From an uncultured Gammaproteobacteria bacterium (GTDB taxonomy: Bacteria; Patescibacteriota; Microgenomatia; UBA1406; HO2-37-13b): a stretch of 64,000 nucleotides of DNA. The notes below the pieces were generated by a model that was not told the origin of the DNA, ran no database searches, and was given only the letters and a program-made list of their open reading frames with translations. Position numbers and translations under genes: made by a program. The DNA is taken from NCBI GenBank assembly GCA_964413645.1, contig CAYPSA010000006.1, positions 6,123-70,122 on the forward strand, written 5' to 3'. This document shows positions 3,332-55,719 of the stretch, in pieces (within the stretch, counting starts at the first letter, position 1; each line of letters starts with the position of its first letter).

Positions 3332-3832
3332 ATGAGTAAATTAATCAACTGTATATGGTTTTCCAATAATAACGGAGAAGAAGCGGCGCACTATTATATC
3401 GATACTTTTAATGCGGCTCCGGGTGACCACGCCGCAACAATGGGGGATATTACAAAATCTCCTCAAGCGAGTGAAGAAGTTTCTGGTATACCCGCAGGTT
3501 CCGTTATGACAGCCGAATGCGAGCTCGATGGTATAAATTTTATGTTTCTAAATGCTGGTCCCGTTGATCAATTTAAATTAAACGGAGCAACGTCTTATAT
3601 TATTGAATGCGAAACGCAAGAAGAAATTGATTTTTTCTGGGAAAAATTATCTGCAGTTCCGCAAGCCGAGCAGTGTGGATGGTGCACTGATAAATTCGGA
3701 ATAACCTGGCAGGTTGTACCTAGAATTCTAGATGAAATGATGCGCGATCCTTCAAAAGCAGAAGCGGTAACGGCTGTTTTCATGCCCATGAAAAAACTTA
3801 ATCTTGAAGCAATTCGAAAAGCTGGAGAATAA
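3332..3832 (+). CDS. VOC/glyoxalase-superfamily protein (PhnB / 3-demethylubiquinone-9 3-methyltransferase-domain type)
   Basis: The N-terminal CIWF..NGEEAAHYY and C-terminal DKFGITWQVVP motifs are typical of this family. Confidence 0.6.
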   Translation: MSKLINCIWFSNNNGEEAAHYYIDTFNAAPGDHAATMGDITKSPQASEEVSGIPAGSVMTAECELDGINFMFLNAGPVDQFKLNGATSYIIECETQEEIDFFWEKLSAVPQAEQCGWCTDKFGITWQVVPRILDEMMRDPSKAEAVTAVFMPMKKLNLEAIRKAGE

Positions 3833-3928: not shown

Positions 3929-4849
3929 ATGAAAGCAGTAATCGCAAATGGCTATGGAGCGCCCGAAGTGTTGAGTGTTCAAAATGTTGAAAAGCCAATA
4001 CCAAAGAAAGGCGAGATTTTAATTAAAGTTAAAGCGGCTAGTTTGAATTCCGGGGACGTACGGATTCGATCGCTTGACGCTGGTGCAGGGTTAAAAGGTG
4101 TTATTGCAAAAACAATTATTCGTTTGCTTGTGGGAATTACAAAACCAAAACGAGTCCCTGGCATGGTGTTAGCTGGTGAAGTTGTAGCACTCGGTGACGG
4201 TGTGGATCAGTTTAAAATAGGCGATCAAGTGTTTGCAATGGCAGGATTTAGCTTTGGAGCATTCGGCGAGTATTGTGCTTTGCCTATTAAGCGAGCAATT
4301 GCACTAAAGCCAAAAAATGCTAGTTTTGAAGAAGCGAGCGCATTGCCCTTTGGTGGTAATACCGCATTATATTTTTTACGTAAAGCTGGTGCGGGTAAAA
4401 ATAAGCGCGTATTAATTTATGGATCTACGGGTGCAGTTGGATCATCAGCAGTTCAAGTTGCGAAATACTTGGGCTGTACTGTTACCGCCGTGTGCAGTAA
4501 AGATGGAATGAATTTATCAAAAACATTGGGAGCAAGCAAAGTATATGATTACCGAGCGACCGGACTCAATGAGATAGAAGGAACATTCGACTTAGTTTTT
4601 GATGCAGTGGGTAAAATTTCTAAAACAAAAGCAAAACATCTAATTTCTGTAAACGGCCAATACATTTCTGTTGAAGGTCTTGATGTTGCTAAGGAAAGTT
4701 CTGCGGATTTAGAACAACTTGCGAAAATGTTTGATAGTGGAAAATTAGTCGCGGTGATCGACAAAACATTTAAGTTAGAAGAAATTGTTGAAGCAAATAG
4801 ATATGTCGACACCGGGCACAAAAAAGGGAACGTAGTTTTAAAAATTTAA
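3929..4849 (+). CDS. NAD(P)-dependent quinone oxidoreductase / zinc-type alcohol dehydrogenase family (MDR)
   Basis: GroES-like N-terminus (GEILIKVKAASLNSGD) and Rossmann motif (YGSTGAVGSSAVQVAK). 306 aa. Confidence 0.75.
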   Translation: MKAVIANGYGAPEVLSVQNVEKPIPKKGEILIKVKAASLNSGDVRIRSLDAGAGLKGVIAKTIIRLLVGITKPKRVPGMVLAGEVVALGDGVDQFKIGDQVFAMAGFSFGAFGEYCALPIKRAIALKPKNASFEEASALPFGGNTALYFLRKAGAGKNKRVLIYGSTGAVGSSAVQVAKYLGCTVTAVCSKDGMNLSKTLGASKVYDYRATGLNEIEGTFDLVFDAVGKISKTKAKHLISVNGQYISVEGLDVAKESSADLEQLAKMFDSGKLVAVIDKTFKLEEIVEANRYVDTGHKKGNVVLKI

Positions 4850-6062: not shown

Positions 6063-6467
6063 ATGAACAAATTGGATCAACTTGTAAAAAATGGATTTCG
6101 AATTACAAAACCACGCCAGGCAATACTTGATGTGCTGGTTTCACACCCTGTAACGGTTCAAGAAATTTATGAATCATTAGAAAAAAAAGGCATTCATATT
6201 GATCTTACTTCCGTATATCGTTCACTTGAATTGTTTGTGGAACTTAAACTTGTGCAAGTTATCGAACTTGGAGAAGGTAAAAAACGATACGAATTGCTTA
6301 ACACCGACAATCATCATCACCATGTGATTTGTAATACTTGCGGAGTTATTGAAGATGTATCTATTGAACAGGAAAAAGAAATCCTTAAACATGTTACAAC
6401 GAAATCTCATTTTAAGATAGATACCCATACGTTAGAATTTTTTGGACAATGTCAGAATTGTCAGTGA
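6063..6467 (+). CDS. zur: Fur-family metalloregulator, probably Zur
   Basis: Winged-helix N-terminus, HHHHVIC..C and CxxC (CQNC) metal sites. It lies directly upstream of the zinc ABC transporter genes. Confidence 0.8.
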   Translation: MNKLDQLVKNGFRITKPRQAILDVLVSHPVTVQEIYESLEKKGIHIDLTSVYRSLELFVELKLVQVIELGEGKKRYELLNTDNHHHHVICNTCGVIEDVSIEQEKEILKHVTTKSHFKIDTHTLEFFGQCQNCQ

Positions 6468-6472
6468 TATAT

Positions 6473-7408
6473 ATGAAAAAAAACACGGTAATTTCCTTAC
6501 TTGTAATCGTCGTCATTTCTCTTGTAGTAAGCTTCTTATATATAGGATCTATTAATAAAAAATCGCAATCAAATCTGAAAGAGGAAAGCAATATTAGTGT
6601 TGTTGCATCATTTTATCCACTTCATTTCTTTGCTTCTCAAATTGCTGGTAATAAAGCAAATGTAATTAATCTTACTCCCGCAGGGGCCGAACCACATGAT
6701 TTTGAGCCAAGCACAAAAGATGTGGGAATAATTGAGAACAGTGACCTTGTGCTCATTAATGGCGTAGGTTTTGAACCGTGGGCTGAAAAGATCAAAGGAA
6801 ACCTGAAAAATAGCTCTGTCATATTTGAGCCAATTGCAGAGGGTTTGGCAAATATGGAAATTGTAGAAGAAGGTGAACTTATTCGGGATCCACATGTCTG
6901 GCTTGATCCTGTCCTCGCTAAACAGCAAGTTTTGAAAATAAGTCAGTTGTTCACTGAAATTGATCCTCAGAATGAAGCAATGTATGCGGCGAATAGTAAA
7001 AATCTTACGAATCAACTTGATGAACTTAATAGGCAATTTGAACAAGGTTTGTCTCAATGTAGTCAAAAAGAATTTATTACGTCACATAGCGCATTTACGT
7101 ATCTTGCATCGCGTTATGGAATTAAGCAAGTGTCTATTGCTGGCTTGTCGCCTGATCAAGAACCATCACCCAAGGAATTGGCTGAAGTAACATCGTTTGC
7201 AAAAGCAAATAATGTTAAGTATATTTTTTTTGAAACATTGGTGAGTCCCCGATTATCTCAAGCAGTTGCTCAAGAAATTGGCGCTCAAACGCTTGTGTTA
7301 AATCCTTTGGAAGGAATAGTAGAAGAAGAGCAGAAAGCGGGGCGTAATTACTTTACCGTACAAGAAGAAAACTTAAAAAATTTGAAAATTGCATTACAGT
7401 GTAAATAA
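6473..7408 (+). CDS. znuA: Metal (zinc) ABC transporter substrate-binding lipoprotein, ZnuA/TroA family
   Basis: EPHDFEPS and DPHVWLDP motifs with a TM/signal N-terminus. Start moved to ATG 6473 (MKKNTV), just after the zur stop. Confidence 0.8.
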   Translation: MKKNTVISLLVIVVISLVVSFLYIGSINKKSQSNLKEESNISVVASFYPLHFFASQIAGNKANVINLTPAGAEPHDFEPSTKDVGIIENSDLVLINGVGFEPWAEKIKGNLKNSSVIFEPIAEGLANMEIVEEGELIRDPHVWLDPVLAKQQVLKISQLFTEIDPQNEAMYAANSKNLTNQLDELNRQFEQGLSQCSQKEFITSHSAFTYLASRYGIKQVSIAGLSPDQEPSPKELAEVTSFAKANNVKYIFFETLVSPRLSQAVAQEIGAQTLVLNPLEGIVEEEQKAGRNYFTVQEENLKNLKIALQCK

Positions 7409-8131
7409 ATGATTATGAACAACAATACGCTCGTTAAAATCAGCAAAGTGAGCTTTACGTATAATGAAGAACGAGTGCTTGACGACATAAACTTAGAAAT
7501 AAAACGGGGAGATTTCTTAGGACTCATTGGGCCAAACGGAAGTGGTAAAACAACATTGCTAAAAATTATTCTCGGGCTTCTAAAATTGCAAGATGGGAAG
7601 ATTTCGCTTTTTGATCAGGATATTCAAAGTTTTAACCAATGGAAAAAAATAGGGTACGTTCCCCAAAAAGCGGCAGCGTTTATTTCACAATTTCCAATTA
7701 CTGTTGAAGAAGTGGTTAGTATGGGGGGAGCAAGCAAAGAATCCGTCAATGAAGCGCTGGCTGCAGTGAGCATGCAAAATCATAATAATAAATTAATAAA
7801 TCAACTTTCAGGTGGACAGCAACAACGCGTATTTATTGCTCGAGCGCTTGCTTCAAAACCAGAGCTTCTAATTCTAGACGAGCCGACCGTTGGGGTAGAT
7901 GTTGATTCACAAACAAAGTTTTATCAATTACTCCGAGACTTAAATAAAAACCTTAATCTTACACTCGTATTAGTTTCGCATGATATTGATGTTGTGGCAC
8001 ATGAAGTTAGCACGCTTGCGTGTATAAATAGTAAGCTGATATGTCATGGAAAACCCAAAGATATTATTACAAGTGATTTTATGAAAAAAATATATGGTAA
8101 GGATTTACGATTTGTTATACACGCACATTGA
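7409..8131 (+). CDS. znuC: Metal ABC transporter ATP-binding protein
   Basis: Walker A GPNGSGKTT, signature LSGGQQQR and Walker B LLILDEP. Confidence 0.85.
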   Translation: MIMNNNTLVKISKVSFTYNEERVLDDINLEIKRGDFLGLIGPNGSGKTTLLKIILGLLKLQDGKISLFDQDIQSFNQWKKIGYVPQKAAAFISQFPITVEEVVSMGGASKESVNEALAAVSMQNHNNKLINQLSGGQQQRVFIARALASKPELLILDEPTVGVDVDSQTKFYQLLRDLNKNLNLTLVLVSHDIDVVAHEVSTLACINSKLICHGKPKDIITSDFMKKIYGKDLRFVIHAH

Positions 8132-8133
8132 CT

Positions 8134-8928
8134 ATGTTTGAAATCTTTCAATATAGCTTTATGATTCGAGCGTTCCTTGCAGGAGGAATGATTGCAATTA
8201 TTGCTCCACTTATTGGTAATTTTTTGGTCATGCGTCGGTTTTCGCTTATTGCCGACACGTTATCGCATGTTGCACTGTCAGGAGTTGCGATAGGACTTCT
8301 TACGGGGACGCAACCATTGGTAGCAACGCTTGTAATAACAATTCTTGCTGCTATTGGTATTGAGCATTTGCGGACAAGTAAAAAAATTCCCGGCGATGCA
8401 GTGCTTGCAATGTTTCTTCCAGGAGGACTGGCGTTATCAATTGTATTAATAAGTCTTGCTAATGGATTTAATACAAATTTGTTTAGTTATTTATTTGGAA
8501 GTATTACTACGGTACAAGAAAATGAACTTTGGCTAATTTTAGTGCTCGGTATTTGTACGGTAGTTATTATTTCTACACTTTATAAAAAGCTGCTCTATGC
8601 ATCGTTTGATGAAGACAGTGCACGAGTTAGTGGAATTTCGATCGAAAGAATTAATACGATTCTGATTATTTTGACAGCAATAACGGTGTCATTATCAATG
8701 CGTGTTGTGGGTATATTATTAATAGGGGCACTTATGGTAATTCCCGTAGTTACAGCAATGCAGGTTGCCAGAAGCTTTCGACAAAGTATATTTATTTCTC
8801 TTTTATTTGCCTTACTATCAGTTTTTGGTGGTTTGGTAGCGGCATATTATTTCAATCTTCCAGCGGGTGGGGCGATTGTTCTTTTGTCGCTCGCAATTTT
8901 CGGTGTAGTGGTTACGATTAAGAGATAA
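8134..8928 (+). CDS. znuB: Metal ABC transporter permease
   Basis: Polytopic membrane protein of the ABC-3 type that follows znuC. ATG 8134 is preferred over the TTG 8128 used by the track. Confidence 0.8.
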   Translation: MFEIFQYSFMIRAFLAGGMIAIIAPLIGNFLVMRRFSLIADTLSHVALSGVAIGLLTGTQPLVATLVITILAAIGIEHLRTSKKIPGDAVLAMFLPGGLALSIVLISLANGFNTNLFSYLFGSITTVQENELWLILVLGICTVVIISTLYKKLLYASFDEDSARVSGISIERINTILIILTAITVSLSMRVVGILLIGALMVIPVVTAMQVARSFRQSIFISLLFALLSVFGGLVAAYYFNLPAGGAIVLLSLAIFGVVVTIKR

Positions 8929-9590: not shown

Positions 9591-10190
9591 ATGGCGCAGT
9601 CATATAAACTCAACATAAAGCCTATTATCGGGATCGGCACTTTTTTATTAATTGGTATCGTTTCATATCTATATCAAAGACCAGTATCACTTTTTCATAA
9701 TGAAATCGACGCTATTCAAATGGAAGAAGTTCGTTTTAAAAACATGAAATTGAAACTTCCCCTCGAAAGCGAAAAAATAAACGATGATTACAGATTTGGA
9801 CTATTCTACACGTTTGGCATTGGTAAAGATCAATTATTGCAGAGCCAGTCGCCTATAGATTTCTCCGTTACTATTGCACAGCGTGATTACGACGACATTA
9901 CTGATGCTGAATTTCAAGAGTCGACAATGGCGTATATTAATGATGATCACATGTATCATCAGAGTGTATGTGGTACCGATAACGTTAAAGAACTCCTGGA
10001 AATTTCTAATGCATCACTGGAAGGCTGGCAGTTTGAAGCTGATTGCTTGGGTGAGGTATATACGTATTATATTAATGGACCAGCACAGCAACTCTATACA
10101 ATAGCCATGAAAATTGAACCAAAAGCTCAAAAGAAGATGTTATATCGCGATATTATAGATGCAACTATTAAAAGTATTGAGTTTGAATAG
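9591..10190 (+). CDS. Hypothetical membrane-anchored protein
   Basis: 199-aa ORF with an N-terminal TM helix. No recognised domain. Confidence 0.5.
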   Translation: MAQSYKLNIKPIIGIGTFLLIGIVSYLYQRPVSLFHNEIDAIQMEEVRFKNMKLKLPLESEKINDDYRFGLFYTFGIGKDQLLQSQSPIDFSVTIAQRDYDDITDAEFQESTMAYINDDHMYHQSVCGTDNVKELLEISNASLEGWQFEADCLGEVYTYYINGPAQQLYTIAMKIEPKAQKKMLYRDIIDATIKSIEFE

Positions 10191-10867: not shown

Positions 10868-11209
10868 ATGTCCCTAGAAATTTTTGATGATGCAGGTGAT
10901 TTTTTTGAAGATTTATATGAAAATCTTTTTGAGCGAAAAAAACTTCGAACTAAAGATCAGGCTACACTCCTTGCTCGAACAAAGCACGCATATCATTACA
11001 CTGAAAGAGTAGAGGGTGTTTTAAAAATGATCTTCGGATTTTCTATTTTTATTTCTGCGGTTGTTGCTACCGTGTGGGGCTTTTCAAGTGTAGGGGAAAT
11101 TGTAAAAGCATTGGTTTCGAGTTGGTATGGAAGAGTAGCATTGAGCATGATTGGAATCAGTTATTTCCTTAACGGATTGTGGCGCTACATTCACGCGCGA
11201 ACTGCCTAG
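10868..11209 (+). CDS. Hypothetical small membrane protein
   Basis: 113 aa with an acidic N-terminus and 2 TM helices. TACAAT lies 6 nt upstream of the ATG. Confidence 0.5.
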   Translation: MSLEIFDDAGDFFEDLYENLFERKKLRTKDQATLLARTKHAYHYTERVEGVLKMIFGFSIFISAVVATVWGFSSVGEIVKALVSSWYGRVALSMIGISYFLNGLWRYIHARTA

Positions 11210-24871: not shown

Positions 24872-25357
24872 ATGAGCGAAAAAGAATCAGATTCATCTAA
24901 AAGCGTATCAACGTTCCAACGTCTTCGTGCAAGCCACAATTTCCGTTTAGGTCTAATTTTGGTCCTCATGGCGATCACGGCGATTCTGTTTTACTTCTGG
25001 GAAAAGGGTCGTATACTACTAGTTGTGGCGTTTATAGCTCTTTTGGCTGCCTTTGGACTTGAAGTAGGAAAAACGGATTATGATTTAGGAAAACTGTGGG
25101 ATACAAAATCGTTGCAAGAATCTAAAGTTTCTCGTGATGAATCTGGAAATATTCTATTTGATAAGCTTGGAAATATTACCACCGATAGCTCTAAAGGTAA
25201 AGCTGCCGATGAGTATAATTGCGCTGATTTTGAAACACGTCCGGAAGCACAATCTTTCTACTTGAAAGTCGGGGGTTCAAAAAATGATGTAAATCGACTC
25301 GATGGTAATAAAGATGGACAAGCCTGCGAAAGTCTTCCCCAGGGATCAAAAAATTAA
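24872..25357 (+). CDS. Membrane protein with a C-terminal Excalibur calcium-binding domain
   Basis: CADFETRPEAQSFY...NRLDGNKDGQACE is the Excalibur signature. TAGAAT lies 6 nt upstream of the ATG. Confidence 0.75.
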   Translation: MSEKESDSSKSVSTFQRLRASHNFRLGLILVLMAITAILFYFWEKGRILLVVAFIALLAAFGLEVGKTDYDLGKLWDTKSLQESKVSRDESGNILFDKLGNITTDSSKGKAADEYNCADFETRPEAQSFYLKVGGSKNDVNRLDGNKDGQACESLPQGSKN

Positions 25358-25402
25358 TTAGCTTCAGGAAAAGGAACTTGGAGATTAGATGTATAATAAG
25401 AT

Positions 25403-25510
25403 ATGTCAGAAAAAGATAAATCAAAGTTTCTATGGGTTGAAAAGGATACGTGGAAAAAAGTAGGAATCGGAGCGCTTGCTATTGGCGTGCTTGGAATGGT
25501 CTTACTTTAA
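25403..25510 (+). CDS. 35-aa single-TM micro-protein (below the ORF-track size cutoff)
   Basis: MSEKDKSKFLWVEKDTWKKVGIGALAIGVLGMVLL. TATAAT (25392-25397) lies 5 nt upstream of the ATG, the promoter geometry seen at many genes here. Confidence 0.4.
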   Translation: MSEKDKSKFLWVEKDTWKKVGIGALAIGVLGMVLL

Positions 25511-25540
25511 GGAAAGAAACTGCAATGATATACTCTTAGT

Positions 25541-26116
25541 ATGACGGGTCGAACACATGATTTATTTGCTTTTACTGCGCTATCGGTACTTGTTGCTACA
25601 AATCCTGTTCCTAGCATGACGCTTGCTACGGCAATAACTGCACTTTCGGCTTGTTTTATTGGTGGACTTGCACCCGATATTGATCAGCCAACGGCTGATT
25701 TGTGGGGACGGTTACCTGCTGGTAATGTTATTGGGCGTGTTTTTACACCTTTTTTAGGAGGACATCGGTGGATTTCACATTCACTAATAGGGGTTGGACT
25801 ATTTGCAATTATCACGAAAATGCTTCTAAATTTATTAGGAACATTTGTATTAGTTGATATGCACATTGTTTGGCAGGCGTTTATGATAGGCTTCATTTCT
25901 CATTTACTAATCGATATGATTACAAAAGAAGGTATTGCATGGCTTTTTCCGCTACCTATTCATTTCGGCTTTCCTCCGTTGCGGTTTATGCGAATTCAGT
26001 CGAGTGGAATGGTTGAAAAAACAATTATTTTCCCCGGTCTACTGTTTTTTAATGTATTCTGGTATTCGAGTCATTATAAATCGTTTTACGCAATTGTCCG
26101 ATCGTTTGTGAAGTAA
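25541..26116 (+). CDS. Membrane-bound metal-dependent hydrolase (YdjM/DUF457-like)
   Basis: MTGRTHD...APDIDQP...SH..D pattern plus TM helices. TATACT lies 6 nt upstream of the ATG. Confidence 0.65.
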   Translation: MTGRTHDLFAFTALSVLVATNPVPSMTLATAITALSACFIGGLAPDIDQPTADLWGRLPAGNVIGRVFTPFLGGHRWISHSLIGVGLFAIITKMLLNLLGTFVLVDMHIVWQAFMIGFISHLLIDMITKEGIAWLFPLPIHFGFPPLRFMRIQSSGMVEKTIIFPGLLFFNVFWYSSHYKSFYAIVRSFVK

Positions 26117-26121
26117 TGTGG

Positions 26122-26173
26122 CAACCTAAGAGGTTGACCGTGCCTGTCCAACCTAAGAGGTTGACCGTGCCTG
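26122..26173. repeat. Tandem pair (27-nt period) of the unit CAACCTAAGAGGTTG-ACCGTGCCTG
   Basis: Exact 25-nt copies at 26122-26146 and 26149-26173. The core is a 6-3-6 palindrome. Intergenic, upstream of typA. Confidence 0.9.
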
Positions 26174-26233
26174 GTCGTTTTCTACACATCTATCGGCTTA
26201 AATCTGATATAATTGGTACTTCTTTGTAATATT

Positions 26234-28057
26234 ATGAATATTCGAAACATAGCCATTATTGCGCACGTCGATCACGGCAAAACCACGTTGGTGGATGCAC
26301 TTCTAAAGCAAACACACACATTCCGCGATAATCAAAAGGAAATGGATCAAACTTTGATCATGGACTCTAATGATTTGGAACGTGAAAAGGGAATTACCAT
26401 TCTTGCAAAAAACACGAGTGTTTTTTATAAGGGTGAAAAAATTAACATTATCGACACCCCTGGCCACGCTGATTTTGGTGGAGAAGTTGAGCGAACGATT
26501 AATATGGCAAGTGGCGCAATTCTTTTAGTTGATGCTGCAGAAGGTCCATTACCGCAAACTCGATTTGTTCTAAAAAAAGCGCTTGAAGCAAAACTTAAAA
26601 TTATTTTAGTTATTAATAAGATCGATAAGAAAGACGAGCGGTCAGATGAAGTTATTCACGAAGTTGAAAACCTCTTTTTAGAATTAGCTCACGACGAAGA
26701 AGCCCTTCATTTCACTACGCTTTTTGCTGTAGGTCGTGATGGAAAAATGTTTTTTGAAAAACCAGAAAGTTATTCTTCCGAAACTCCTGGCGACCTTACC
26801 CCTCTTTTTGACACAATCCTTGAACAGGTACCAAACGCTGCAATTAACGAAGATAAGCCATTCCAAATGCTAATTTCTACACTCGATCATGATTTGTATG
26901 TTGGTAAATTATGTATTGGAAAAGTGAATCAAGGTAAATTAACCAAAGGCTCAAAAATAGTTGTGGTCAACGAATCAGGAGTTTTGGGAAACTACACAGC
27001 TTCTAAACTTTACACGAGCGAAGGGCTTGCAAAGGTCGAAGTAAACGAAATTACTGCCGGCGACATTGTAGCACTTGCTGGAATTTCTGAACTTACCATT
27101 GGTCAAACGGTTGCGGATCCGGCAAATCCAGTGGCACTTCCAACTATTGAAATTGAAGAACCAACTATTAAAGTAACAATTGCTCCAAATACATCGCCAC
27201 TCGGAGGTAAGGAGGGGCAATTTACAACATCTCGACAAATTCGTGAACGGTTAATGAAAGAAATGCAAACAAATTTAGGTCTTCGATTTGAAGATGATCC
27301 AGAACGCGGAGGATTCATGGTAAGCGGTCGAGGTGAACTTCATCTTGCTATTCTTATTGAAACCATGCGACGTGAAGGATTTGAACTTGAAGTTTCTCGA
27401 CCTCAAGTTATTTACAAAAAAATCGATGGGGAAACGTGTGAACCATATGAAGAAGTAACCATTGATGTTCATAAAGATCATATGGGCGCTGTAAGTGAGG
27501 AACTTGGAAAGCGAAAAGCAAGCATGATCGATCTTATAACCGATCGAAGCGAACATGTTCGAATGATTTACAAGATTTCGAGCCAAAATTTAATTGGAAT
27601 CCGAAGTTCACTTCTTACCAAAACTCGAGGAACGCTGGTTATGAGTTCATACTTATTGGGATACGAGAAAAAAGGAAGCGCTATGGAATCAATTCGAAAT
27701 GGAGCGCTTATTGCAACGCAATTAGGACCATCAATGACTTATGGACTTATTAACGCCCAAGAACGAGGAACATTGTTTATTGGTCCAACAGTGCAAGTAT
27801 ATCAGGGAATGGTTGTTGGTTTGGCTTCAAAAGATGATGATGTTGAAGTTAATGTATGTCGAGAAAAGAAATTGACAAATAATCGTTCTTCGGGAGAAGG
27901 AGTTTCAGTGGCACTTATTCCACCAACAATTCTTTCGCTTGAACAATGTTTGGATTTTATCGGTGACGATGAACTTTTGGAAGTAACTCCAGTGAATTTG
28001 CGCATCCGCAAACGATATCTTACTCAAAGCGCACGAAAAGTAGCGGAACGCAGATAA
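26234..28057 (+). CDS. typA: Translational GTPase TypA/BipA
   Basis: AIIAHVDHGKTTLVD, DTPGHADFGGEV and NKIDK motifs, about 607 aa. ATG 26234 is preferred over the upstream TTG. Confidence 0.9.
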   Translation: MNIRNIAIIAHVDHGKTTLVDALLKQTHTFRDNQKEMDQTLIMDSNDLEREKGITILAKNTSVFYKGEKINIIDTPGHADFGGEVERTINMASGAILLVDAAEGPLPQTRFVLKKALEAKLKIILVINKIDKKDERSDEVIHEVENLFLELAHDEEALHFTTLFAVGRDGKMFFEKPESYSSETPGDLTPLFDTILEQVPNAAINEDKPFQMLISTLDHDLYVGKLCIGKVNQGKLTKGSKIVVVNESGVLGNYTASKLYTSEGLAKVEVNEITAGDIVALAGISELTIGQTVADPANPVALPTIEIEEPTIKVTIAPNTSPLGGKEGQFTTSRQIRERLMKEMQTNLGLRFEDDPERGGFMVSGRGELHLAILIETMRREGFELEVSRPQVIYKKIDGETCEPYEEVTIDVHKDHMGAVSEELGKRKASMIDLITDRSEHVRMIYKISSQNLIGIRSSLLTKTRGTLVMSSYLLGYEKKGSAMESIRNGALIATQLGPSMTYGLINAQERGTLFIGPTVQVYQGMVVGLASKDDDVEVNVCREKKLTNNRSSGEGVSVALIPPTILSLEQCLDFIGDDELLEVTPVNLRIRKRYLTQSARKVAERR

Positions 28058-28074
28058 TTTTTGTACTAGCCCCA

Positions 28075-28103
28075 TTGACATCTTCATAATTATTTTCTAT
28101 CAT
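28075..28103 (+). promoter_or_regulatory. Sigma-70-type promoter (TTGACA-17 nt-TATCAT)
   Basis: TTGACA at 28075-28080 and TATCAT at 28098-28103. ATG 28111 lies 7 nt downstream. Confidence 0.6.
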
Positions 28104-28110
28104 CGTTGTA

Positions 28111-28887
28111 ATGGAAGACCTTTTGCAGGTAAAAAAGCATGTTGCTGGTCAGCGATTGATCATTTGGCTTCTTGTTGGATTCATACTATTTTTTGTAGCC
28201 TTACTTGTAATTTCCACAAAATCTCTACAAGAACAAGCGATAGGCTTATCTACGCAGGCTGCTCAAATTAAATCTAAAGTACCCGAAGCCACGGTGGATA
28301 GTGTCGACGGATCTGCAAATTGCATAGCTCAAATTAAGGATCTTGCATTTAAACAAGCCATTGGCGGTGAGGCATGTTATTCTCGTGCAAGCTTTACATG
28401 TGTAGGAGGTCCAAATAACGGGAAAAAAATGTCACAAGATGCTCCGGCCCAAAGCGGCGGATGTTTATCGCAAGAAAAATGGGTAGAACTTGCAGATCGG
28501 AGTTGCGGATGCGGAGGACAGGAAGGGAATTGTAAATATAAGAAAATTGATTATAGATCGATTGGTATTAATCGTGAAAGTATTTCTTGTAATAAAGCAA
28601 GTACGAGTTCGTGTAATTATGAAGCAGTAATTACCTGTGCAGATGATAAAGAATATAAAGCTTTCAGACCAACGTGTATGGGTGCTAGAGTTAATAGAGA
28701 TAAGAGTCCCGATACGTGGGATTTTTACGCAAATATGATTTGTTGTTACAACATTGGAAAGCCTGCGTGTCGTGAATTTACGCTAAATGACTATGGTATT
28801 TGCAATGCATACTGTTCAGCACGAAATTCCAAGTGTGTTCCGGGTGGTGACTTAGGACTTCATTGTGCCAATCAAACCTGTCTTTAA
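28111..28887 (+). CDS. Cys-rich membrane-anchored extracytoplasmic protein
   Basis: N-terminal TM helix (LIIWLLVGFILFFVALLVI) followed by a ~200-aa domain with more than 25 Cys, including CGCGG and CC pairs. Confidence 0.65.
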   Translation: MEDLLQVKKHVAGQRLIIWLLVGFILFFVALLVISTKSLQEQAIGLSTQAAQIKSKVPEATVDSVDGSANCIAQIKDLAFKQAIGGEACYSRASFTCVGGPNNGKKMSQDAPAQSGGCLSQEKWVELADRSCGCGGQEGNCKYKKIDYRSIGINRESISCNKASTSSCNYEAVITCADDKEYKAFRPTCMGARVNRDKSPDTWDFYANMICCYNIGKPACREFTLNDYGICNAYCSARNSKCVPGGDLGLHCANQTCL

Positions 28888-29507
28888 AACGAGCATTTAT
28901 TCCATAAACCTCGCTTATTTTCCTGTGCAGATTTTTGTGCGAGCGCTAACGCATCTTTGAATTTCACATCGGGTGGGTACGCGTGTGCAAATGCAAAACC
29001 TGAATCCACGAGATGATGATTGACGAAAATGTTATCGATATAAACGTATCTCAACAGCCTACCGAATCGATCAGTTTCTGAACGATCTTTTTCCATACGA
29101 ATTCTTTTATTCAATATTAGATCGCTTAATTTTTGCGTAGCTTGAATCCCAAAACATTCAGGCTCACGGGCATTTGCTTTATTAAGTTCAGGAGTGTCAA
29201 TACCAATGAGTCGAACTTTTTGTTTTGTTTCAATTTCAAAAGTATCGCCATCGATAATGCGCGTAACGACATATTGTTCACTGTTTGCTCCTTTGACTGC
29301 AGTATTAGTTACTGCGAGAATCTTGCTTGCATTAGGAGTTGGTGTTGTGAGGTTCGTGGAGAATGACGACGATTGGCAACCTAAGAGGTTGTCACGCACG
29401 TTCCACCTAAGAGGTTGACAGATTAGGTATGAAGAAATGATTCCAATTATTAAAATAGCGAATATTGAGACAATGAGGATGGTGCTGACTTTTTGTTTTA
29501 ACGGCAT
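28884..29507 (-). CDS. Membrane-anchored thermonuclease (SNase family)
   Basis: VTRIIDGDTFEI...VRLIGIDTPE...GRLLRYVY...LVDSGFA are staphylococcal-nuclease motifs, and there is an N-terminal TM anchor. Confidence 0.8.
   Translation of the reverse strand: MPLKQKVSTILIVSIFAILIIGIISSYLICQPLRWNVRDNLLGCQSSSFSTNLTTPTPNASKILAVTNTAVKGANSEQYVVTRIIDGDTFEIETKQKVRLIGIDTPELNKANAREPECFGIQATQKLSDLILNKRIRMEKDRSETDRFGRLLRYVYIDNIFVNHHLVDSGFAFAHAYPPDVKFKDALALAQKSAQENKRGLWNKCSF
29377..29417. repeat. Second pair of the CAACCTAAGAGGTTG palindrome (one perfect copy, one CCACCT variant; 26-nt period), inside the nuclease ORF
   Basis: Copies at 29377-29391 and 29403-29417, translated on the minus strand as DNLLGCQ and QPLRW. 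Confidence 0.9.
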
Positions 29508-29509
29508 GT

Positions 29510-30382
29510 TCAGGCAATAGTATACACCTGGTTTTTGAAAGTTATCATTCCTTCTTTTTCTAGCCCCGCGAGAATTTCGGCAATTTCCAATTCTTCTCGA
29601 TTAATTAGTGAGAATAAGTCCTTCTTCGAGAGTATTTTTCTCTCTAAGAGCAGTCGAATAATCTCTCCTCGAACTTGTCTTCGCGACCCATCAAATTTAC
29701 TCTGCTTAGAGTATGAACTACTTTTCCGAGACGGATTTTTAAAACTTTTTTTCAAATAAACACCATAATCCATAAGCGCATAATACCAGTCGCGCGGATC
29801 AATATTATCATTTTCGGCGTAGTCTGTTGGCAGGTAGGGCGCTTGTAAAACTTTCTCAATTATTGGGAGTATGTCTTTGTCATTTACAGACTCTTTATCA
29901 GTAAAAAAGCGATGAATAAAAACGGTTCGAATATTTGTTTCGATAAAAACAACGGGTTTATTAAATGCAAAAGCAACAATTGCACATGCGGTGTTGTACC
30001 CAATTCCAGGAAGTTTTTGCAGATCCTCTACATTAGTAGGCACTATCCCTTCATATTCAGAAACTATTTTTTCCGCAGATTTTTTCAGAAAGATACCACG
30101 ACGATTGTATCCTAACCCCTGCCAAACCCTTAGAACCTCTTCATTAGATGCTTTTGCAAGTGTGTTTATTGTCGGAAACTCAGTAATAAATTCATTGAAT
30201 TTTTCAATCACCCGAGGAGCTTGCGTTTGCTGCAGCATTATTTCGGAAACTAAAATAAAATATGGATTTTCAATATCTCTCCAGGGAAAATGTCTTTTAT
30301 GAAAATGATAAAAGTCGATAACTGTTTTTTTGAAATCTACCAGTGAATTGTTTGAAGGAGAGTTCGGTCCAATTTTCTTCAT
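29510..30382 (-). CDS. mutY: MutY-like adenine DNA glycosylase (HhH-GPD), without the Cys cluster, with a short C-terminal winged-helix-like tail
   Basis: EIMLQQTQ, GLGYNRR and LPGIGYNTACAI (HhH) motifs. There are no Cys residues where the 4Fe-4S loop normally sits. Confidence 0.7.
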   Translation of the reverse strand: MKKIGPNSPSNNSLVDFKKTVIDFYHFHKRHFPWRDIENPYFILVSEIMLQQTQAPRVIEKFNEFITEFPTINTLAKASNEEVLRVWQGLGYNRRGIFLKKSAEKIVSEYEGIVPTNVEDLQKLPGIGYNTACAIVAFAFNKPVVFIETNIRTVFIHRFFTDKESVNDKDILPIIEKVLQAPYLPTDYAENDNIDPRDWYYALMDYGVYLKKSFKNPSRKSSSYSKQSKFDGSRRQVRGEIIRLLLERKILSKKDLFSLINREELEIAEILAGLEKEGMITFKNQVYTIA

Positions 30383-49957: not shown

Positions 49958-51748
49958 ATGCCTAAATTTACATTCAATGAACTTAATGATCAACAACGAG
50001 AAGCCGTTGAAGCGGTAAAGGGACCTTCGATTATTCTCGCAGGTGCGGGATCAGGGAAGACTCGTGTGCTAACAAGTAAAGTAAAAAATTTGATTCAAAA
50101 TTATAACGTAGATCCATTACATATCATGATGGTTACCTTCACCAATAAGGCTGCTGCAGAAATGAAGGAGCGGGTTGGAGAGAAACTTGGTTTTATTGGA
50201 ACATTTCATTCATTTGGAGTTCGAGTATTACGTCGTTTCGCTCCGCTTGCACATCTTGATCCAGAATTCATTATTTACGACCGTGACGATCAAGAGTCGC
50301 TAATAAAAGAAGTATTAGTAGAGCTTGAGATAGACAAAAAATATACACCTGCATTTTTCTTAGGTAGAATTTCTAGTGCCAAAGATGAGCTGATTTCTCC
50401 GGCAAAATATCAAGAAATGTTTAAAGATTTCTTGGGTAAAATGGTTGGACCTGTTTATGCTTTATATCAAAAAAAGTTGGAACGAAATAATGCAGTCGAT
50501 TTTGACGACTTAATTTACAAAGTCGTTAATCTTCTTAAATCCAATGAATCCGTGTTGGATTTTTATCAAAAGCAATTTCAATATATTCTTGTTGATGAGT
50601 TTCAAGATACAAATTTTGCTCAATATTTACTTACGAAACTTCTTGGTCGAGCGGATCAGAATGTAACGATTGTTGGGGACTTTTCGCAAAGTATCTACTC
50701 GTGGCGAGGCGCGCAAATTAAGAATCTTGAGAAATTTAAAACAGACTTTGAAGATGCACAGACTTTTTATTTGGAGGAAAATTATCGATCAACTCAAAAA
50801 ATTTTGGATTTTGCATATGACATAATTTCTCAGAATGAAACGCATCCAATTTTAAAAGTGTTTACACAACAAGGTGGTGGGGAAGAGGTGGTAATTGAGG
50901 AGCTTGAAAATGAAGAATATGAGGCTCTGTATGTTGCGGCTCAGATTGAGAATGCAGTGTCGCAAGGCGATCGTGAGTATGATTCATTTGCTGTTTTGTA
51001 TCGCATCAATGCGCAATCGCGAGCAATCGAAGAAGCATTTTTACATATGGGAATTCCATATGTTCTTATTGGCGGAACACGGTTTTATGAGCGAAAGGAA
51101 GTAAAAGATGTTTTGTCGTATTTGCGATTGTTGGCTAACGAACGAGATTCTGTTTCACAGGCGCGTGTAGAAAAAATTGGAAAAAGGCGATTTGATAGTT
51201 TCAAGATTTTGTACGAAGTGATGCGCGACAAACTTCAAACAACTCCCACACTTGAAATCATCGATGCCATTCTTGAGAGGACGAGATATACCGAACTATA
51301 CAATGGAGATCAGGAAGATGACATCGCACGACTCGAAAACATTAAGGAACTTCGTTCGGTTGCGCTGAATTTTCCATCGCTACACGATTTCTTGGAACAA
51401 GTTGCATTAGTTGAATCTGAGTATTCTCAGAATGAGAAGAATAATCGTGAGAAAAAAGGAGTTCGTTTAATGACACTTCACCAGGCTAAGGGTTTGGAGT
51501 TTCCTTTTGTATTTATTGTAGGACTTGAAGAAGGGATTCTTCCACATAGTAGAGCAGTTGATGATTTATATGAGCTTGAAGAGGAGCGAAGACTCTTTTA
51601 TGTGGGTATTACTCGAGCTCGTGAAAAGCTCCATATAACCCATTCTCGTAAACGATTTATGTTTGGACGAAGAAATTACAGTCAAAAATCGCGCTTTTTA
51701 GATGATACAATTACAGCATCTGCAGATCCAATTACTGATTGGGACTAA
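49958..51748 (+). CDS. UvrD/PcrA/Rep-family SF1 DNA helicase (compact, 596 aa)
   Basis: AGAGSGKT, VDEFQDTN, TLHQAKGLEF and YVGITRA motifs. Confidence 0.85.
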   Translation: MPKFTFNELNDQQREAVEAVKGPSIILAGAGSGKTRVLTSKVKNLIQNYNVDPLHIMMVTFTNKAAAEMKERVGEKLGFIGTFHSFGVRVLRRFAPLAHLDPEFIIYDRDDQESLIKEVLVELEIDKKYTPAFFLGRISSAKDELISPAKYQEMFKDFLGKMVGPVYALYQKKLERNNAVDFDDLIYKVVNLLKSNESVLDFYQKQFQYILVDEFQDTNFAQYLLTKLLGRADQNVTIVGDFSQSIYSWRGAQIKNLEKFKTDFEDAQTFYLEENYRSTQKILDFAYDIISQNETHPILKVFTQQGGGEEVVIEELENEEYEALYVAAQIENAVSQGDREYDSFAVLYRINAQSRAIEEAFLHMGIPYVLIGGTRFYERKEVKDVLSYLRLLANERDSVSQARVEKIGKRRFDSFKILYEVMRDKLQTTPTLEIIDAILERTRYTELYNGDQEDDIARLENIKELRSVALNFPSLHDFLEQVALVESEYSQNEKNNREKKGVRLMTLHQAKGLEFPFVFIVGLEEGILPHSRAVDDLYELEEERRLFYVGITRAREKLHITHSRKRFMFGRRNYSQKSRFLDDTITASADPITDWD

Positions 51749-52776: not shown

Positions 52777-55719
52777 TTATTGCCACGCTTCACAGTTTAT
52801 TTTAAAAGGGCACCAGCTACACCAAGGCCCAGTATGTGCGTCAAACTTCCCTACTTTAATTTTAGAAACCACATCTTCAATAGTACCGATAACAACATCT
52901 AAATCTTTCTGAGTCTTTGTAAATGAAACCTTCTTGTTTTCTTGAAAGTAAATGTAGCTTACTGTAATTTTATCTAATGGTTTTCCAAACAAGCTCGGGT
53001 CAGTTGCTGCACGGGCGTACAACGAAAGTTGCATTTCCTTTTTAAAATCTGCATCGCTTGGAACTTTGCCCGTTTTATAATCGATGATTTCGATAGTTCC
53101 ATTTTGCAAATAATCAATTCGATCAATTTTTCCAGAAATATATATTCCTTCTTCAATTTTTATTTTGAACGACTGTTCAAGTCCTGCGATCTTAATTTCT
53201 TTTGAGTGGTATGTATTGTAGAATTCACGTAAAATCCGTTCTCCTTCCTGTTTCATTTCTTGCTCATATTTTTTTGAACCATATCCAATAGGAACCCAAT
53301 TCGTTTTATATAAATCTAAGAGCGTGGTAAGTGTTGGTTGTAGATTTTGCATGTGTTGTTGGTAAAAGAATTGCAGCGCAGCATGAATTGAAGTTCCAAA
53401 AGATGCAGCAGATCCGGCAGCAGTTGGAATTTTTAAAATATATTGGTATTTGTATTTGAGCGGACAAGTAAGATATGTTTGTATCTGTGAAAAAGAAAAA
53501 GCACGGGGGATATGTTTTACTTTTATTTCTTTAGTTGGTTTTTTATCTTCTGTTAATTTTCCAAATGAATTTCGTAAGCTTGGCAAATCAAAAATTGCAA
53601 GTTGCCCTTTGGAATCCTGTGCTGATACGAGCGCTTTTTGAATACCGTTTTCCCCAACTGCTTCAAAAACATACGGAGAAATTTTGTGTTCACGCTTCCC
53701 TTCTCCGTAAAAACTTGAGCCCGACATAAATAATCTTTTTTTTGCACGAGTCATTCCTACGTAAAATAATCGACGTTCTTCTTGCAAGTGTGCATTTCCT
53801 ACAGGTAAAACTTCTTTGATTAAATCATCGGGTAACGGAATTTGTTCTTTACGATCGTATGTAGGAAATCGACCCGATGTAAGATTTATCATAAAAACCG
53901 TATCAAACTCTAAGCCCTTAGCAGCATGAATAGTTGAGATAACTACTGCATTTTGACTTTCAAAATCATCTTCATCCACTGGAGTGCTGTCGCCCAGCTC
54001 CATACTTAAATTTATAAAATCTACAACCGCAATGACCGAAGCATCTTCTTCTTGCAATTCGTACGCTTTTAATTTGTTAAAAAACTTAGAAATATTTTTG
54101 GCTCGGTCTTCTTCCTTTTCAGTTGTGAAGTGGGAAATTTTCGCAAGGTATCCACTGTTTTCAAGAAAGTAAAAAAGTAATTGACCCGCAGTATCTTTTT
54201 TCATGCGAGCAATACTCTGATTAATGAGCGTAACAAGTTTATAAAGGTGCTCTTTTGAATCCTTTCGCATTGAAAAGATGTAGGGTTTGTAATGAATGTT
54301 TTCCTCACTTGAAAGATCACTATACGAAAAGCCAAGATATATAAGTGCGCTTTCGAATAAAGATAGTCCAATTTTTCGACTGAATGAAACTAGCCGAGCC
54401 AAGTCAATTTCATGAATATTGAAAACTTCCATTTGCGTAATCCGATAAAACGCTGCAGAATTATTGATGTCATATAAAACTTCCAAGTATGCAATGAGCT
54501 CTTTTATTTCCGGCTGGCGAAGAAGCATTCCCGGACCAGGAAGTTGAAATGGAATCCCCTTTTTTAACAATGCTCGAATAAATGGCTCACTGTGGCTATT
54601 TGCACGGGTAAGAATTGCAAAGTCGCTGTAGGTGAGTGTTGAGTTTTCTTTTTTCGTTTTAATTATTGTCTTTACTACTTGTTCAGCCTCAGATGTCACA
54701 AAAGGATGGATTTGGAATTGGGGACTTGTTTCGCTTGTACCGATTTTAGAAATAAGATTCTTGGAAATTTTAAGGCGAGCTTCCAACGTATCGTGATCGT
54801 TGTTTTTGATTAGCTTATACGATGTGTCTAAAATAGACTGCGTACTTCTAAAGTTTTCAGTTAATACAATTTGTTTTGATTTTTTATAATCTTTGGTGAA
54901 TGTGAGAATGTTGGAAATAGACGCCCCGCGGAACTTATAAATGCTTTGATTATCGTCACCAATGACAGTGAGATTTGGTTTATTTTTTGTAGGAGCAAGA
55001 AGTTTAATAAGCTCGTACTGTGCTATATTAGTATCCTGAAATTCATCGACTAGAATATATTTAAATTTCTTTTGATACTGCGCAAGAATGTTCTTTCTCT
55101 TTCTGAATAATGTTAGAGTGTATGAGATTAAATCGGCAAAATCCATGATATTGTGAGTGCGTTTCAATTCCTCGAAAGCAGCGTATGCTTGAGCAAGTTC
55201 CACATATTTTTCTTTGTCTTCTTTTTGTTTTGCAGCAAACACTCTATAAGCAGCAGGAGATACGTCTTCGTCAGCAAGTCGTGAGAAATGCTGAAGCAGC
55301 CCAAATAAAAATTTATTTGGATTAGAAAGAGGTTTGAAATATTTTAAATTTAAATTCCCAATATTCCGGCGCAAAAACATAATTGCCTGAGCTTGTGTGT
55401 GGAGCTTATACGCCGGCGACATTCCAATATGAATAATTTCATCGCGCAGGATTTTATCTGCAAATGCATGAAACGTACTAATGTTTGTTTGAAAAAAGCC
55501 AATGGGCAAGGCCTTATCTACCCGATCTTCCATTTCTTTAGCAGCCTTTTCGGTGAAGGTAAGCGCAAGAATTTCATCGGGCTTCGCGAGTTTTTTTTCA
55601 ATTAAGTGTTTTATTTTTTCAACCAATACTGTCGTCTTTCCAGTTCCTGCTCCGGCGATAAGGAGTAGTGGGCCTTTAGTGTGTTTGACTGCCTTAATTT
55701 GTGTGGGAGTAAGTTGCAT
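52777..55719 (-). CDS. UvrD-type helicase fused to a PD-(D/E)XK nuclease with a Cas4/AddB-like 4-Cys cluster
   Basis: GAGTGKT and VDEFQDTN motifs. The C-terminus has TCPLKYKY, GKIDRID, EIIDYKTGK, QLSLY and CSWCPFKINC. TATAAT lies 8 nt upstream of the ATG. Confidence 0.85.
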   Translation of the reverse strand: MQLTPTQIKAVKHTKGPLLLIAGAGTGKTTVLVEKIKHLIEKKLAKPDEILALTFTEKAAKEMEDRVDKALPIGFFQTNISTFHAFADKILRDEIIHIGMSPAYKLHTQAQAIMFLRRNIGNLNLKYFKPLSNPNKFLFGLLQHFSRLADEDVSPAAYRVFAAKQKEDKEKYVELAQAYAAFEELKRTHNIMDFADLISYTLTLFRKRKNILAQYQKKFKYILVDEFQDTNIAQYELIKLLAPTKNKPNLTVIGDDNQSIYKFRGASISNILTFTKDYKKSKQIVLTENFRSTQSILDTSYKLIKNNDHDTLEARLKISKNLISKIGTSETSPQFQIHPFVTSEAEQVVKTIIKTKKENSTLTYSDFAILTRANSHSEPFIRALLKKGIPFQLPGPGMLLRQPEIKELIAYLEVLYDINNSAAFYRITQMEVFNIHEIDLARLVSFSRKIGLSLFESALIYLGFSYSDLSSEENIHYKPYIFSMRKDSKEHLYKLVTLINQSIARMKKDTAGQLLFYFLENSGYLAKISHFTTEKEEDRAKNISKFFNKLKAYELQEEDASVIAVVDFINLSMELGDSTPVDEDDFESQNAVVISTIHAAKGLEFDTVFMINLTSGRFPTYDRKEQIPLPDDLIKEVLPVGNAHLQEERRLFYVGMTRAKKRLFMSGSSFYGEGKREHKISPYVFEAVGENGIQKALVSAQDSKGQLAIFDLPSLRNSFGKLTEDKKPTKEIKVKHIPRAFSFSQIQTYLTCPLKYKYQYILKIPTAAGSAASFGTSIHAALQFFYQQHMQNLQPTLTTLLDLYKTNWVPIGYGSKKYEQEMKQEGERILREFYNTYHSKEIKIAGLEQSFKIKIEEGIYISGKIDRIDYLQNGTIEIIDYKTGKVPSDADFKKEMQLSLYARAATDPSLFGKPLDKITVSYIYFQENKKVSFTKTQKDLDVVIGTIEDVVSKIKVGKFDAHTGPWCSWCPFKINCEAWQ

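Follow-up and report, generated by a model that had tools for sequence, protein, structure and literature searches.

The stretch analysed here, a 64-kb window of contig CAYPSA010000006.1 from a Microgenomates/Roizmanbacteria-like bacterium of the candidate phyla radiation (CPR), carries two pairs of a short palindrome, CAACCT-NNN-AGGTTG, at the ydjM–typA–nuclease locus. The first pair lies between the gene of a YdjM/DUF457 membrane hydrolase and a conserved promoter preceding typA/bipA; a Cys-rich gene follows typA, and the second pair lies inside the adjoining gene of a membrane-anchored thermonuclease (Table 1). The initial annotation of the window had described four palindromes at these positions and nowhere else, and both statements hold. 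Three are exact copies of CAACCTAAGAGGTTG, the fourth, CCACCTAAGAGGTTG, has a single mismatch in its CCACCT arm, and the central triplet reads AAG on the plus strand in all four. None of 100 dinucleotide shuffles of the window reached four matches (mean 0.10), and CAACCT is the only family of hairpins with 6-bp arms to have at least three copies in the window. The palindrome sequence is identical in two independent Logan assemblies, SRR8893623 and SRR8893624, and therefore does not represent an assembly artefact.

Pair 1 repeats a 25-nt sequence, CAACCTAAGAGGTTGACCGTGCCTG, exactly and with a period of 27 nt; it begins 5 nt past the YdjM/DUF457 stop codon and lies 71 nt ahead of the start codon of typA, the product of which has the same length (607 aa) in all orthologues. 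Pair 2 has a 26-nt period and sits between the transmembrane (TM) anchor and the SNase domain of the nuclease, its two copies being translated in different frames, all as previously described. The spacer of pair 2, read on the reverse strand, matches that of pair 1 at 8 of 11 positions, which had raised the possibility that the pairs are mutually inverted. The asymmetric linker motif GTGC(C/G)TG gives each unit an orientation and bears this out: a covariance model built from 13 doublets of the family described below scores pair 1 best on the plus strand (58.6 bits against 40.2 on the minus) and pair 2 best on the minus strand (56.9 bits against 26.4 on the plus). With filters off, the model finds only these two loci in the window; its next match, at position 3702, scores 10.9 bits (E 0.09) and falls inside a conserved TWQV coding motif.

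Table 1. Positions of the hairpin modules, neighbouring genes and other repeats in the 64-kb window
Feature	Position	Strand	Description
YdjM/DUF457 membrane hydrolase gene	25541..26116	+	Upstream of pair 1
Hairpin module 1a	26122..26136	+	CAACCT-AAG-AGGTTG, exact copy; 6-bp stem, 3-nt loop
Linker module	26137..26148	+	ACCGTGCCTGTC; family linker xxx-GTGC(C/G)TG-xx, sets unit orientation
Hairpin module 1b	26149..26163	+	Same as 1a, exact copy; extra unit relative to the single-unit state of relative L006
Weak terminator-like hairpin	26162-26177		GACC/GGTC + TTTTCT, after pair 1
Second linker copy	26164..26187	+	ACCGTGCCTGGT, followed by a T-run
Promoter and typA/bipA	26205..28057	+	Conserved extended -10 promoter TGATATAAT (26205-26213), ATG at 26234; downstream of pair 1
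Cys-rich gene	28111-28887		258 aa, between typA and the nuclease gene; no Pfam hit
Membrane-anchored thermonuclease gene (SNase, PF00565)	28884..29507	-	Host gene of pair 2
Canonical doublet (pair 2)	29377..29417	-	CAACCTcttAGGTGG (29417-29403, one mismatch), linker AACGTGCGTGA (29402-29392), CAACCTcttAGGTTG (29391-29377, exact copy)
Fur-family (probably Zur) regulator and ZnuA / ABC ATPase / ABC-3 permease operon	6063-8928		Regulator at 6063, then the operon; no CAACCT palindrome nearby
UvrD-family helicase gene	49958-51748	+	Contains inverted-repeat region 50133-50648
UvrD-family helicase gene with PD-(D/E)XK domain	52777-55719	-	Contains inverted-repeat region 54993-55562

The two pairs share the architecture of a wider family. 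Its basic doublet consists of a CAACCT-NNN-AGGTTG hairpin, a 12-nt linker of the form (GTA/ACC/AAC)GTGC(C/G)TG(TT) and a second such hairpin, and comparison of the copies defines the family by its two 6-nt arms and the downstream GTGC(C/G)TG, to the exclusion of the central triplet. A 15-nt hairpin and its 12-nt linker make up a 27-nt unit, which has the size and stem-loop form of repetitive extragenic palindromic (REP) elements, and arrays contain one to three units. The observed loop triplets are AAG, CTT, GGA, TCG, CCG, GTG and GGC; they are mostly alike within an array, with AAG sometimes standing beside CTT, and a triplet can flip from AAG to CTT relative to the linker. At the orthologous site upstream of typA the loop is AAG in the window and in the relative L006, and CTT in the relative L012 and in a sister genome (contig L029). 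The loop is independent of unit orientation, and for this reason the inverted pairs of the window can both show AAG on the plus strand. At some loci a perfect palindrome, TCCGCCAGCTGGCGGA, takes the place of the second left arm. This 16-nt palindrome and its variants are also found interleaved with CAACCT hairpins in relatives (L012 8200-8300, L017 4040-4065, L024 7255-7285, L028 1470-1500), with a further variant in L038 at about 10990-11010; the module is absent from the window.

The initial annotation had listed, among its candidate explanations, a miniature dispersed REP-like or transposon-like element tolerated in a coding linker, and a search of related genomes for the motif gave this candidate substance. 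We scanned contigs, one genome per species, with the hairpin-plus-linker pattern YAACCTNNNAGGTTRNNNGTGCSTG. Twelve of the 15 loci recovered come from six contigs of one metagenome-assembled genome (MAG), CAYQYZ01, in which the proteins of the ydjM–typA region are 82-97% identical to those of the window; the remaining matches are single chance occurrences in unrelated high-GC genomes. The sister MAG thus holds at least 12 loci with about 25 hairpins in about 0.8 Mb, at the low end of published REP families (PMC3733652), and the doublets at the 12 loci read CAACCT-NNN-AGGTTG, GTAGTGC(C/G)TGTT, CAACCT-NNN-AGGTTG. The window's own species contributes two loci in 64 kb and one degenerate hairpin on contig L037. 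A scan of JGI metagenomes with AGGTTRNNNGTGCSTGNNCAACCT did not detect the family, its seven matches all being single, of high GC content and devoid of flanking hairpins, as expected of chance; a scan of IMG/VR gave one chance match and no link to phages.

In the sister MAG the elements occur in every kind of intergenic region and, where it is short, take up almost its entire length. Between tandem genes (L016, L024a/b, L029, L022) they start 3-13 nt past a stop codon and end 7-14 nt ahead of the next TATAAT, and many of the genes that follow look leaderless. One element lies between convergent genes (L018, iPGM/PfkB) and three between divergent genes (L017, L023, L028, including Obg/ECF sigma and MetRS/DprA). 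Two loci are coding: L020, where the element encodes TTSQVEQALPTSKV as residues 279-293 of a 784-aa open reading frame (ORF), and L021, where a GT2 gene has it at the N-terminus, translated as TTSKVEHALPTSKV. The distribution is that of REP elements, mostly extragenic and downstream of ORFs in tandem or convergent arrangement, with three divergent copies and, counting pair 2, three coding copies as exceptions. The neighbouring genes are unrelated housekeeping genes (RF, Obg, ECF sigma, iPGM, PfkB, rpoB, MetRS, DprA, GlmS, UbiA and PIN_5).

The sister MAG, which has about 40% GC, is deposited as 'uncultured Gammaproteobacteria bacterium isolate SRP286056_co1_376' (L016-L018, L020-L025, L028 and L029; contigs CAYQYZ0100000x), a label that looks wrong given the 82-97% protein identity to a Microgenomates window. 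One of its contigs bears a lone perfect hairpin, CAACCTcgaAGGTTG, at L017 661-675 in the ORF of a YchF/OLA1-type GTPase; lacking a linker and a partner, it represents either a solitary relic of the family within a conserved gene or a chance match of a rare kind. Many gene starts of the clade are preceded, at a distance of 5-7 nt, by a (T)GTATAAT(A) box, neither a -35 element nor a Shine-Dalgarno sequence being visible (L016 about 1700-1722, L017 about 3995-4017, L024 about 6222-6246, L025 about 2075-2100, L006 13155-13178), a pattern which suggests that the clade uses -10-only promoters and leaderless mRNAs.

Orthologous sites differ in their content of these elements. Nuclease orthologues led to four related genomes in which the ydjM–typA spacer can be aligned. 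The promoter block ACATCTATSGGCTTAAATCTGATATAAT is conserved in all four, including the element-free L013, and the variable stretch is the one between the ydjM stop codon and this block. It contains no unit in L013, one in L006 (GGCAACCTAAGAGGTTGACCGTGCCTGG), two in the window and three in the sister MAG (L029), while the single unit of L012 has T..A at its ends, CTT as its loop and GTAGTGCGTG as its linker, and is accompanied by an extra GC-rich palindrome. The series of 0, 1, 2 and 3 units by species suggests that pair 1 is an expansion of unit number at an old site. At the pfkB/iPGM junction, the genes overlap and the site is empty in L039; L037, from the same species as the window, has one degenerate hairpin, GGCAATCTtccAGGTGG, CAYQYZ01 has a complete doublet whose loops are GGA, and L038 has other material, including a TCCGCC...GGCGGA-type hairpin. 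The exo-to-ubiA spacer is reduced to 14 nt in L045, consisting of the stop codon, TATAAT and ATG, and extends to 78 nt with an element in CAYQYZ01; L043 and the Roizmanbacteria RIFCSPHIGHO2 relative L046 carry different, species-specific hairpin-rich inserts in it. Across the clade, different families of hairpin repeats seem to have taken up the same small gaps between genes, and the invasion of shared small gaps by clade-specific hairpin repeats is the classic REP-like pattern. Since orthologous sites in sister species lack the element, the adjacent promoters do not need it. The species-specific GC-rich inverted repeats of the exo/ubiA/PIN_5 spacers lie at 9893-10000 and 10922-11049 in L046 and at 9937-10000 in L043.

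In the nuclease, the SNase domain of which starts at about residue 97, the in-frame translation of pair 2 reads Q31-PLRWNVRDNLLG-C44. The N-terminal TM anchor is conserved in 16 of 16 aligned orthologues, and the linker around pair 2 is hypervariable in length and sequence; the insertion would be tolerated because this linker is unconstrained. The window and L005 (82% protein identity) both have the nuclease copy, which L012 and L013 lack. In L006 it is half-decayed, the first hairpin being lost and the second reading CCACCTtccAGGTTG. The coding copy changes at about the rate of its flanks, and its exact insertion boundaries are not definable, as the linker can be aligned only among the three closest relatives. 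In-frame insertion into a functional ORF, of the type described in Rickettsia, is seen here and in the further cases of L020 and L021. Because L012 has the typA copy without the nuclease copy, the two pairs arose independently, and the earlier suggestion that they bracket typA, the Cys-rich gene and the nuclease gene as one unit finds no support. The Cys-rich gene is found in L005, L012 and L013 and is missing from the species of L006, where typA abuts the nuclease gene.

We interpret the two pairs as independent members of a lineage-specific, modular family of dispersed hairpin repeats in a Roizmanbacteria-like clade (Microgenomates, CPR), resembling REP elements and the bacterial interspersed mosaic elements (BIMEs) that they form, and assign this reading a probability of roughly 0.62. 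The family exists, it is dispersed through every intergenic context and in frame in genes, its arrays of one to three units have variable loops, and its orthologous sites are empty or differently filled. Units would have settled in compact intergenic regions, as a rule in the gap that separates a stop codon from the next -10 box, and arrays would then have grown and shrunk through slippage or recombination between directly repeated hairpins. Pair 1 would represent an expansion from one unit to two downstream of ydjM, and may have the role of a hairpin at the 3' end of an mRNA, of a weak terminator or of a site for protein binding. Pair 2 would be an old in-frame insertion in the nuclease linker, now probably decaying in one lineage. 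Spreading may have been due to a single-stranded DNA transposase resembling the REP-associated tyrosine transposases (RAYTs), the gene of which would lie in another part of the genome, or to the switching of templates at hairpins.

In the published REP families, stems measure 5-13 bp and loops 2-20 nt, and unit numbers run from thousands to below 20, with 20-100 or fewer in many of them (PMC3733652); most members are situated downstream of ORFs, and dimers inside genes occur as well (Di Nocera et al. 2013, PMC3733652). Their mobilisation has been proposed to be the work of RAYTs (Nunvar et al. 2010, PMC2817692). The present family, with its 6-bp stem and 3-nt loop, falls inside these ranges. 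Like the GTAG/CGTC-tagged REP elements and BIMEs, it is clade-specific, is found mostly just downstream of ORFs in tandem and convergent gaps, forms modular arrays with conserved linkers and occasionally yields in-frame intragenic dimers. A GTAG abuts the hairpin in sister genomes, AGGTTG being directly followed by GTAG in 9 of 14 hairpin-plus-linker matches of the CAYQYZ01 loci and at the typA site of L012. The likeness is incomplete in that this GTAG stands 3' to the hairpin, the stem is not GC-rich, the copies number in the tens and not in the hundreds, and the host is a CPR bacterium. Two other kinds of element invite comparison. Ogata and colleagues are said to have described in 2000 the Rickettsia palindromic elements (RPEs) as inserted in frame in protein-coding genes; like an RPE, pair 2 is a palindromic insert that adds a short peptide in a tolerant region and does not destroy the protein, but RPE-1 measures 100-150 bp against 41-42 nt (about 14 codons) here, and three coding copies were seen. 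The small, seemingly non-autonomous units with inverted-repeat ends (CAACCT at the start, AGGTTG at the end) and a polymorphic presence also recall miniature transposable elements with inverted repeats (MITEs) and elements derived from IS200-IS605; however, the outer flanks (TTGA, TATT, CCAA, GTGG) show no consistent target-site duplication, no parent insertion sequence was identified, and a unit of 42 nt is far below typical MITE size.

Several observations weigh against the interpretation as a REP-like repeat. Within an array all linkers point one way, as in pair 1 of the window and the triple array of L029, and not in the alternating orientations of REP elements in BIMEs. The window copies carry ACCG (twice) and AACG in place of GTAG. 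Copy number is low, at about 12 loci in the sister MAG and two in the window. No candidate mobiliser was found: Pfam searches of 65 of the 67 window ORFs (at least 80 aa) revealed no transposase, RAYT or recombinase, those of the 18 ORFs flanking the 12 sister loci no RAYT or transposase, and tblastn with E. coli RayT over 377 kb of sequence returned nothing; these searches covered the minor part of a genome of roughly 1 Mb. The head-to-tail arrays, the low copy number, the 3'-side or missing GTAG and the lack of a detected RAYT are the reasons why we class the family as resembling a REP family and not as proven to be of the RAYT type. Seven copies lie 7-14 nt from a -10 box, which could reflect a promoter-related function rather than crowding. 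The stems are conserved in sequence without supporting covariation for hairpin formation. Finally, the unit upstream of typA is identical between the window and L006 at 28 of 28 positions, although the two typA genes agree at only 0.71 of their 4-fold sites (0.58 for L012 and 0.49 for L013, against 0.32 by chance). The copy upstream of typA must therefore be constrained or homogenised, and its identity fits sequence-specific protein binding at least as well as it fits a selfish repeat.

This last result is among the grounds for the main rival reading, in which the doublets are operators in tandem for a dimeric DNA-binding protein that would be either a global regulator or associated with the nucleoid. 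The protein would contact the arms of CAACCT-N3-AGGTTG, leave the 3-bp centre untouched and, at promoters with only a -10 box, many of them leaderless, bind beside or over the -35 region. We consider this rather improbable, though it fits a number of facts. About 25 copies, drawn from at least four species, have nearly invariant arms and a free centre and show no covariation, as would suit dyad-symmetric sites such as the tandem palindromic NrdR and ArgR boxes, which likewise have fixed spacing and sometimes lie over a promoter. L006 has a further pair, CAACCTgggAGGTAG-N10-CAACCTggcAGGTTG, placed 10 nt upstream of the extended -10 box of zip, and six more copies, in the sister MAG, stand 7-14 nt from TATAAT followed by a leaderless ATG. 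On the other hand, copies also occur between convergent gene ends (L018) and in ORFs (pair 2, L020 and L021), orthologous promoters in sister species do without the element, and the asymmetric 12-nt linker is conserved like the arms and is found in both orientations relative to the adjacent promoter. The functionally heterogeneous neighbours do not make up a coherent promoter set, nor was a cognate regulator found among the window ORFs, the only regulators of which are Fur/Zur, HrcA and RpoD, with known boxes that we take to differ from the palindrome. Of the earlier suggestion of paired operators, then, the dyad symmetry with a free centre stands, and the regulatory role is disfavoured by the convergent-end and coding copies, the unrelated neighbours and the conserved linker. 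The element was also considered as a source of -35 sequences (AGGTTGaca resembling TTGACA) and rejected, as the gap to the -10 box is 7-14 nt instead of 17.

A selected role at the RNA level, rather than one as repeat DNA, appears unlikely: the elements would then serve as terminators, insulators or stabilisers of mRNA 3' ends, and the nuclease copy as a regulator of translation or decay. Their start 3-13 nt past stop codons in tandem and convergent contexts would agree with such a role, as would the T-run after the last module upstream of typA, which scores as terminator-like. Canonical doublets fold better than shuffled sequences, with z from -3.3 to -5.2, but the window's own copies do so only marginally (z = -1.25 to -2.3), and terminator-like sites are not more numerous than in shuffles. 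Most copies lack a U-tract, copies occur in both orientations relative to transcription, and those at divergent promoters would lie outside any 3' untranslated region. Covariation over the 13 doublets amounts to a single compensatory pair (C-G to T-A), no more than shuffles give, and a search of 25400-29700 against Rfam at E<=1 gave no match. With stems conserved in sequence and a single compensatory pair, covariation does not separate hairpin formation from sequence-specific protein contact. A role at mRNA 3' ends may coexist with either the repeat or the operator reading.

That the inverted pairs are targets of a site-specific recombinase inverting or excising the 3.2-kb typA/Cys-rich/nuclease segment, as had also been proposed, is very improbable despite their inverted placement 3.2 kb apart and the absence of the intervening Cys-rich gene from the species of L006, because gene order and orientation are the same in two assemblies of the organism and in four relatives, with no inversion or deletion between the loci in any of them, an inversion would split the nuclease gene, L012 has one copy without the other, units occur singly at many unrelated loci, and no recombinase or transposase was found among the 65 window ORFs searched.

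Within the interpretation as a dispersed repeat family, we also entertained a more specific mode of growth, in which a minimal self-propagating module of 27 nt, AGGTTG-linker-CAACCT, would integrate within the loop of a hairpin already in place, with the 3-nt loop becoming a target-site duplication. Adjacent hairpins have the same loop triplet in 12 of 17 pairs, or in 11 of 15 when the identical doublets of L018 and L023, which have no orthologue among the other loci examined, are counted once and the zip pair of L006, which has no canonical linker, is excluded. If true, loop insertion would account for the shared triplets and for growth from one to two to three units at one site, for the TC at the junction of pair 1, which is typical of the family and copies neither flank, and for spread in a reduced CPR genome with no recognisable RAYT involved. 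Plain tandem slippage, however, would give rise to nearly the same products, and the evidence does not discriminate between the two; we regard loop insertion as a doubtful proposition.

The usual picture of the genomes of CPR bacteria (Patescibacteria) is one of very small size, streamlining and few repeats, and REP-like repeats are apparently undescribed in the CPR phylum, judging from a narrow full-text search of the literature. As a phenomenon, the family falls within what is known of REP-like elements in other phyla. A clade-specific hairpin family, the copy number of which shifts between sister species, would be a useful marker of genome dynamics in uncultured CPR bacteria, and it bears on the annotation and assembly of compact intergenic regions, in particular on the calling of promoters, terminators and start codons. 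The copy upstream of typA, with its perfect conservation, offers a concrete candidate for a function in cis.

In the relatives a ZIP metal-transporter gene is divergent from ydjM; the window lacks zip (25357-25541). The zip promoter regions (L006 13098-13176, L012 8867-9080, L013 14013-14112) each have a different palindrome, these being the CAACCT pair, TTACGAGC...GCTCGTAA or AACACGTGTT. The copy at the zip promoter of L006 and the Fur-family gene of the window prompted the idea of a Zur operator; the other copies are unrelated to metal genes. The low-scoring match mentioned above, TAACCTGGCAGGTTG at 3702-3716, is identical at 14 of 15 positions to the zip-promoter hairpin of L006. It was rejected as a family member, as it has neither linker nor partner and encodes the conserved TWQV of a PF06983 (3-dmu-9_3-mt/PhnB-like) protein, and the likeness is most likely a coincidence. 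The longest inverted repeats of the window are of another kind. They match over 85 nt at 79% and 43 nt at 84%, are contained in two UvrD-family helicase genes of opposite orientation (Table 1) and look like paralogous motif regions, not mobile DNA.

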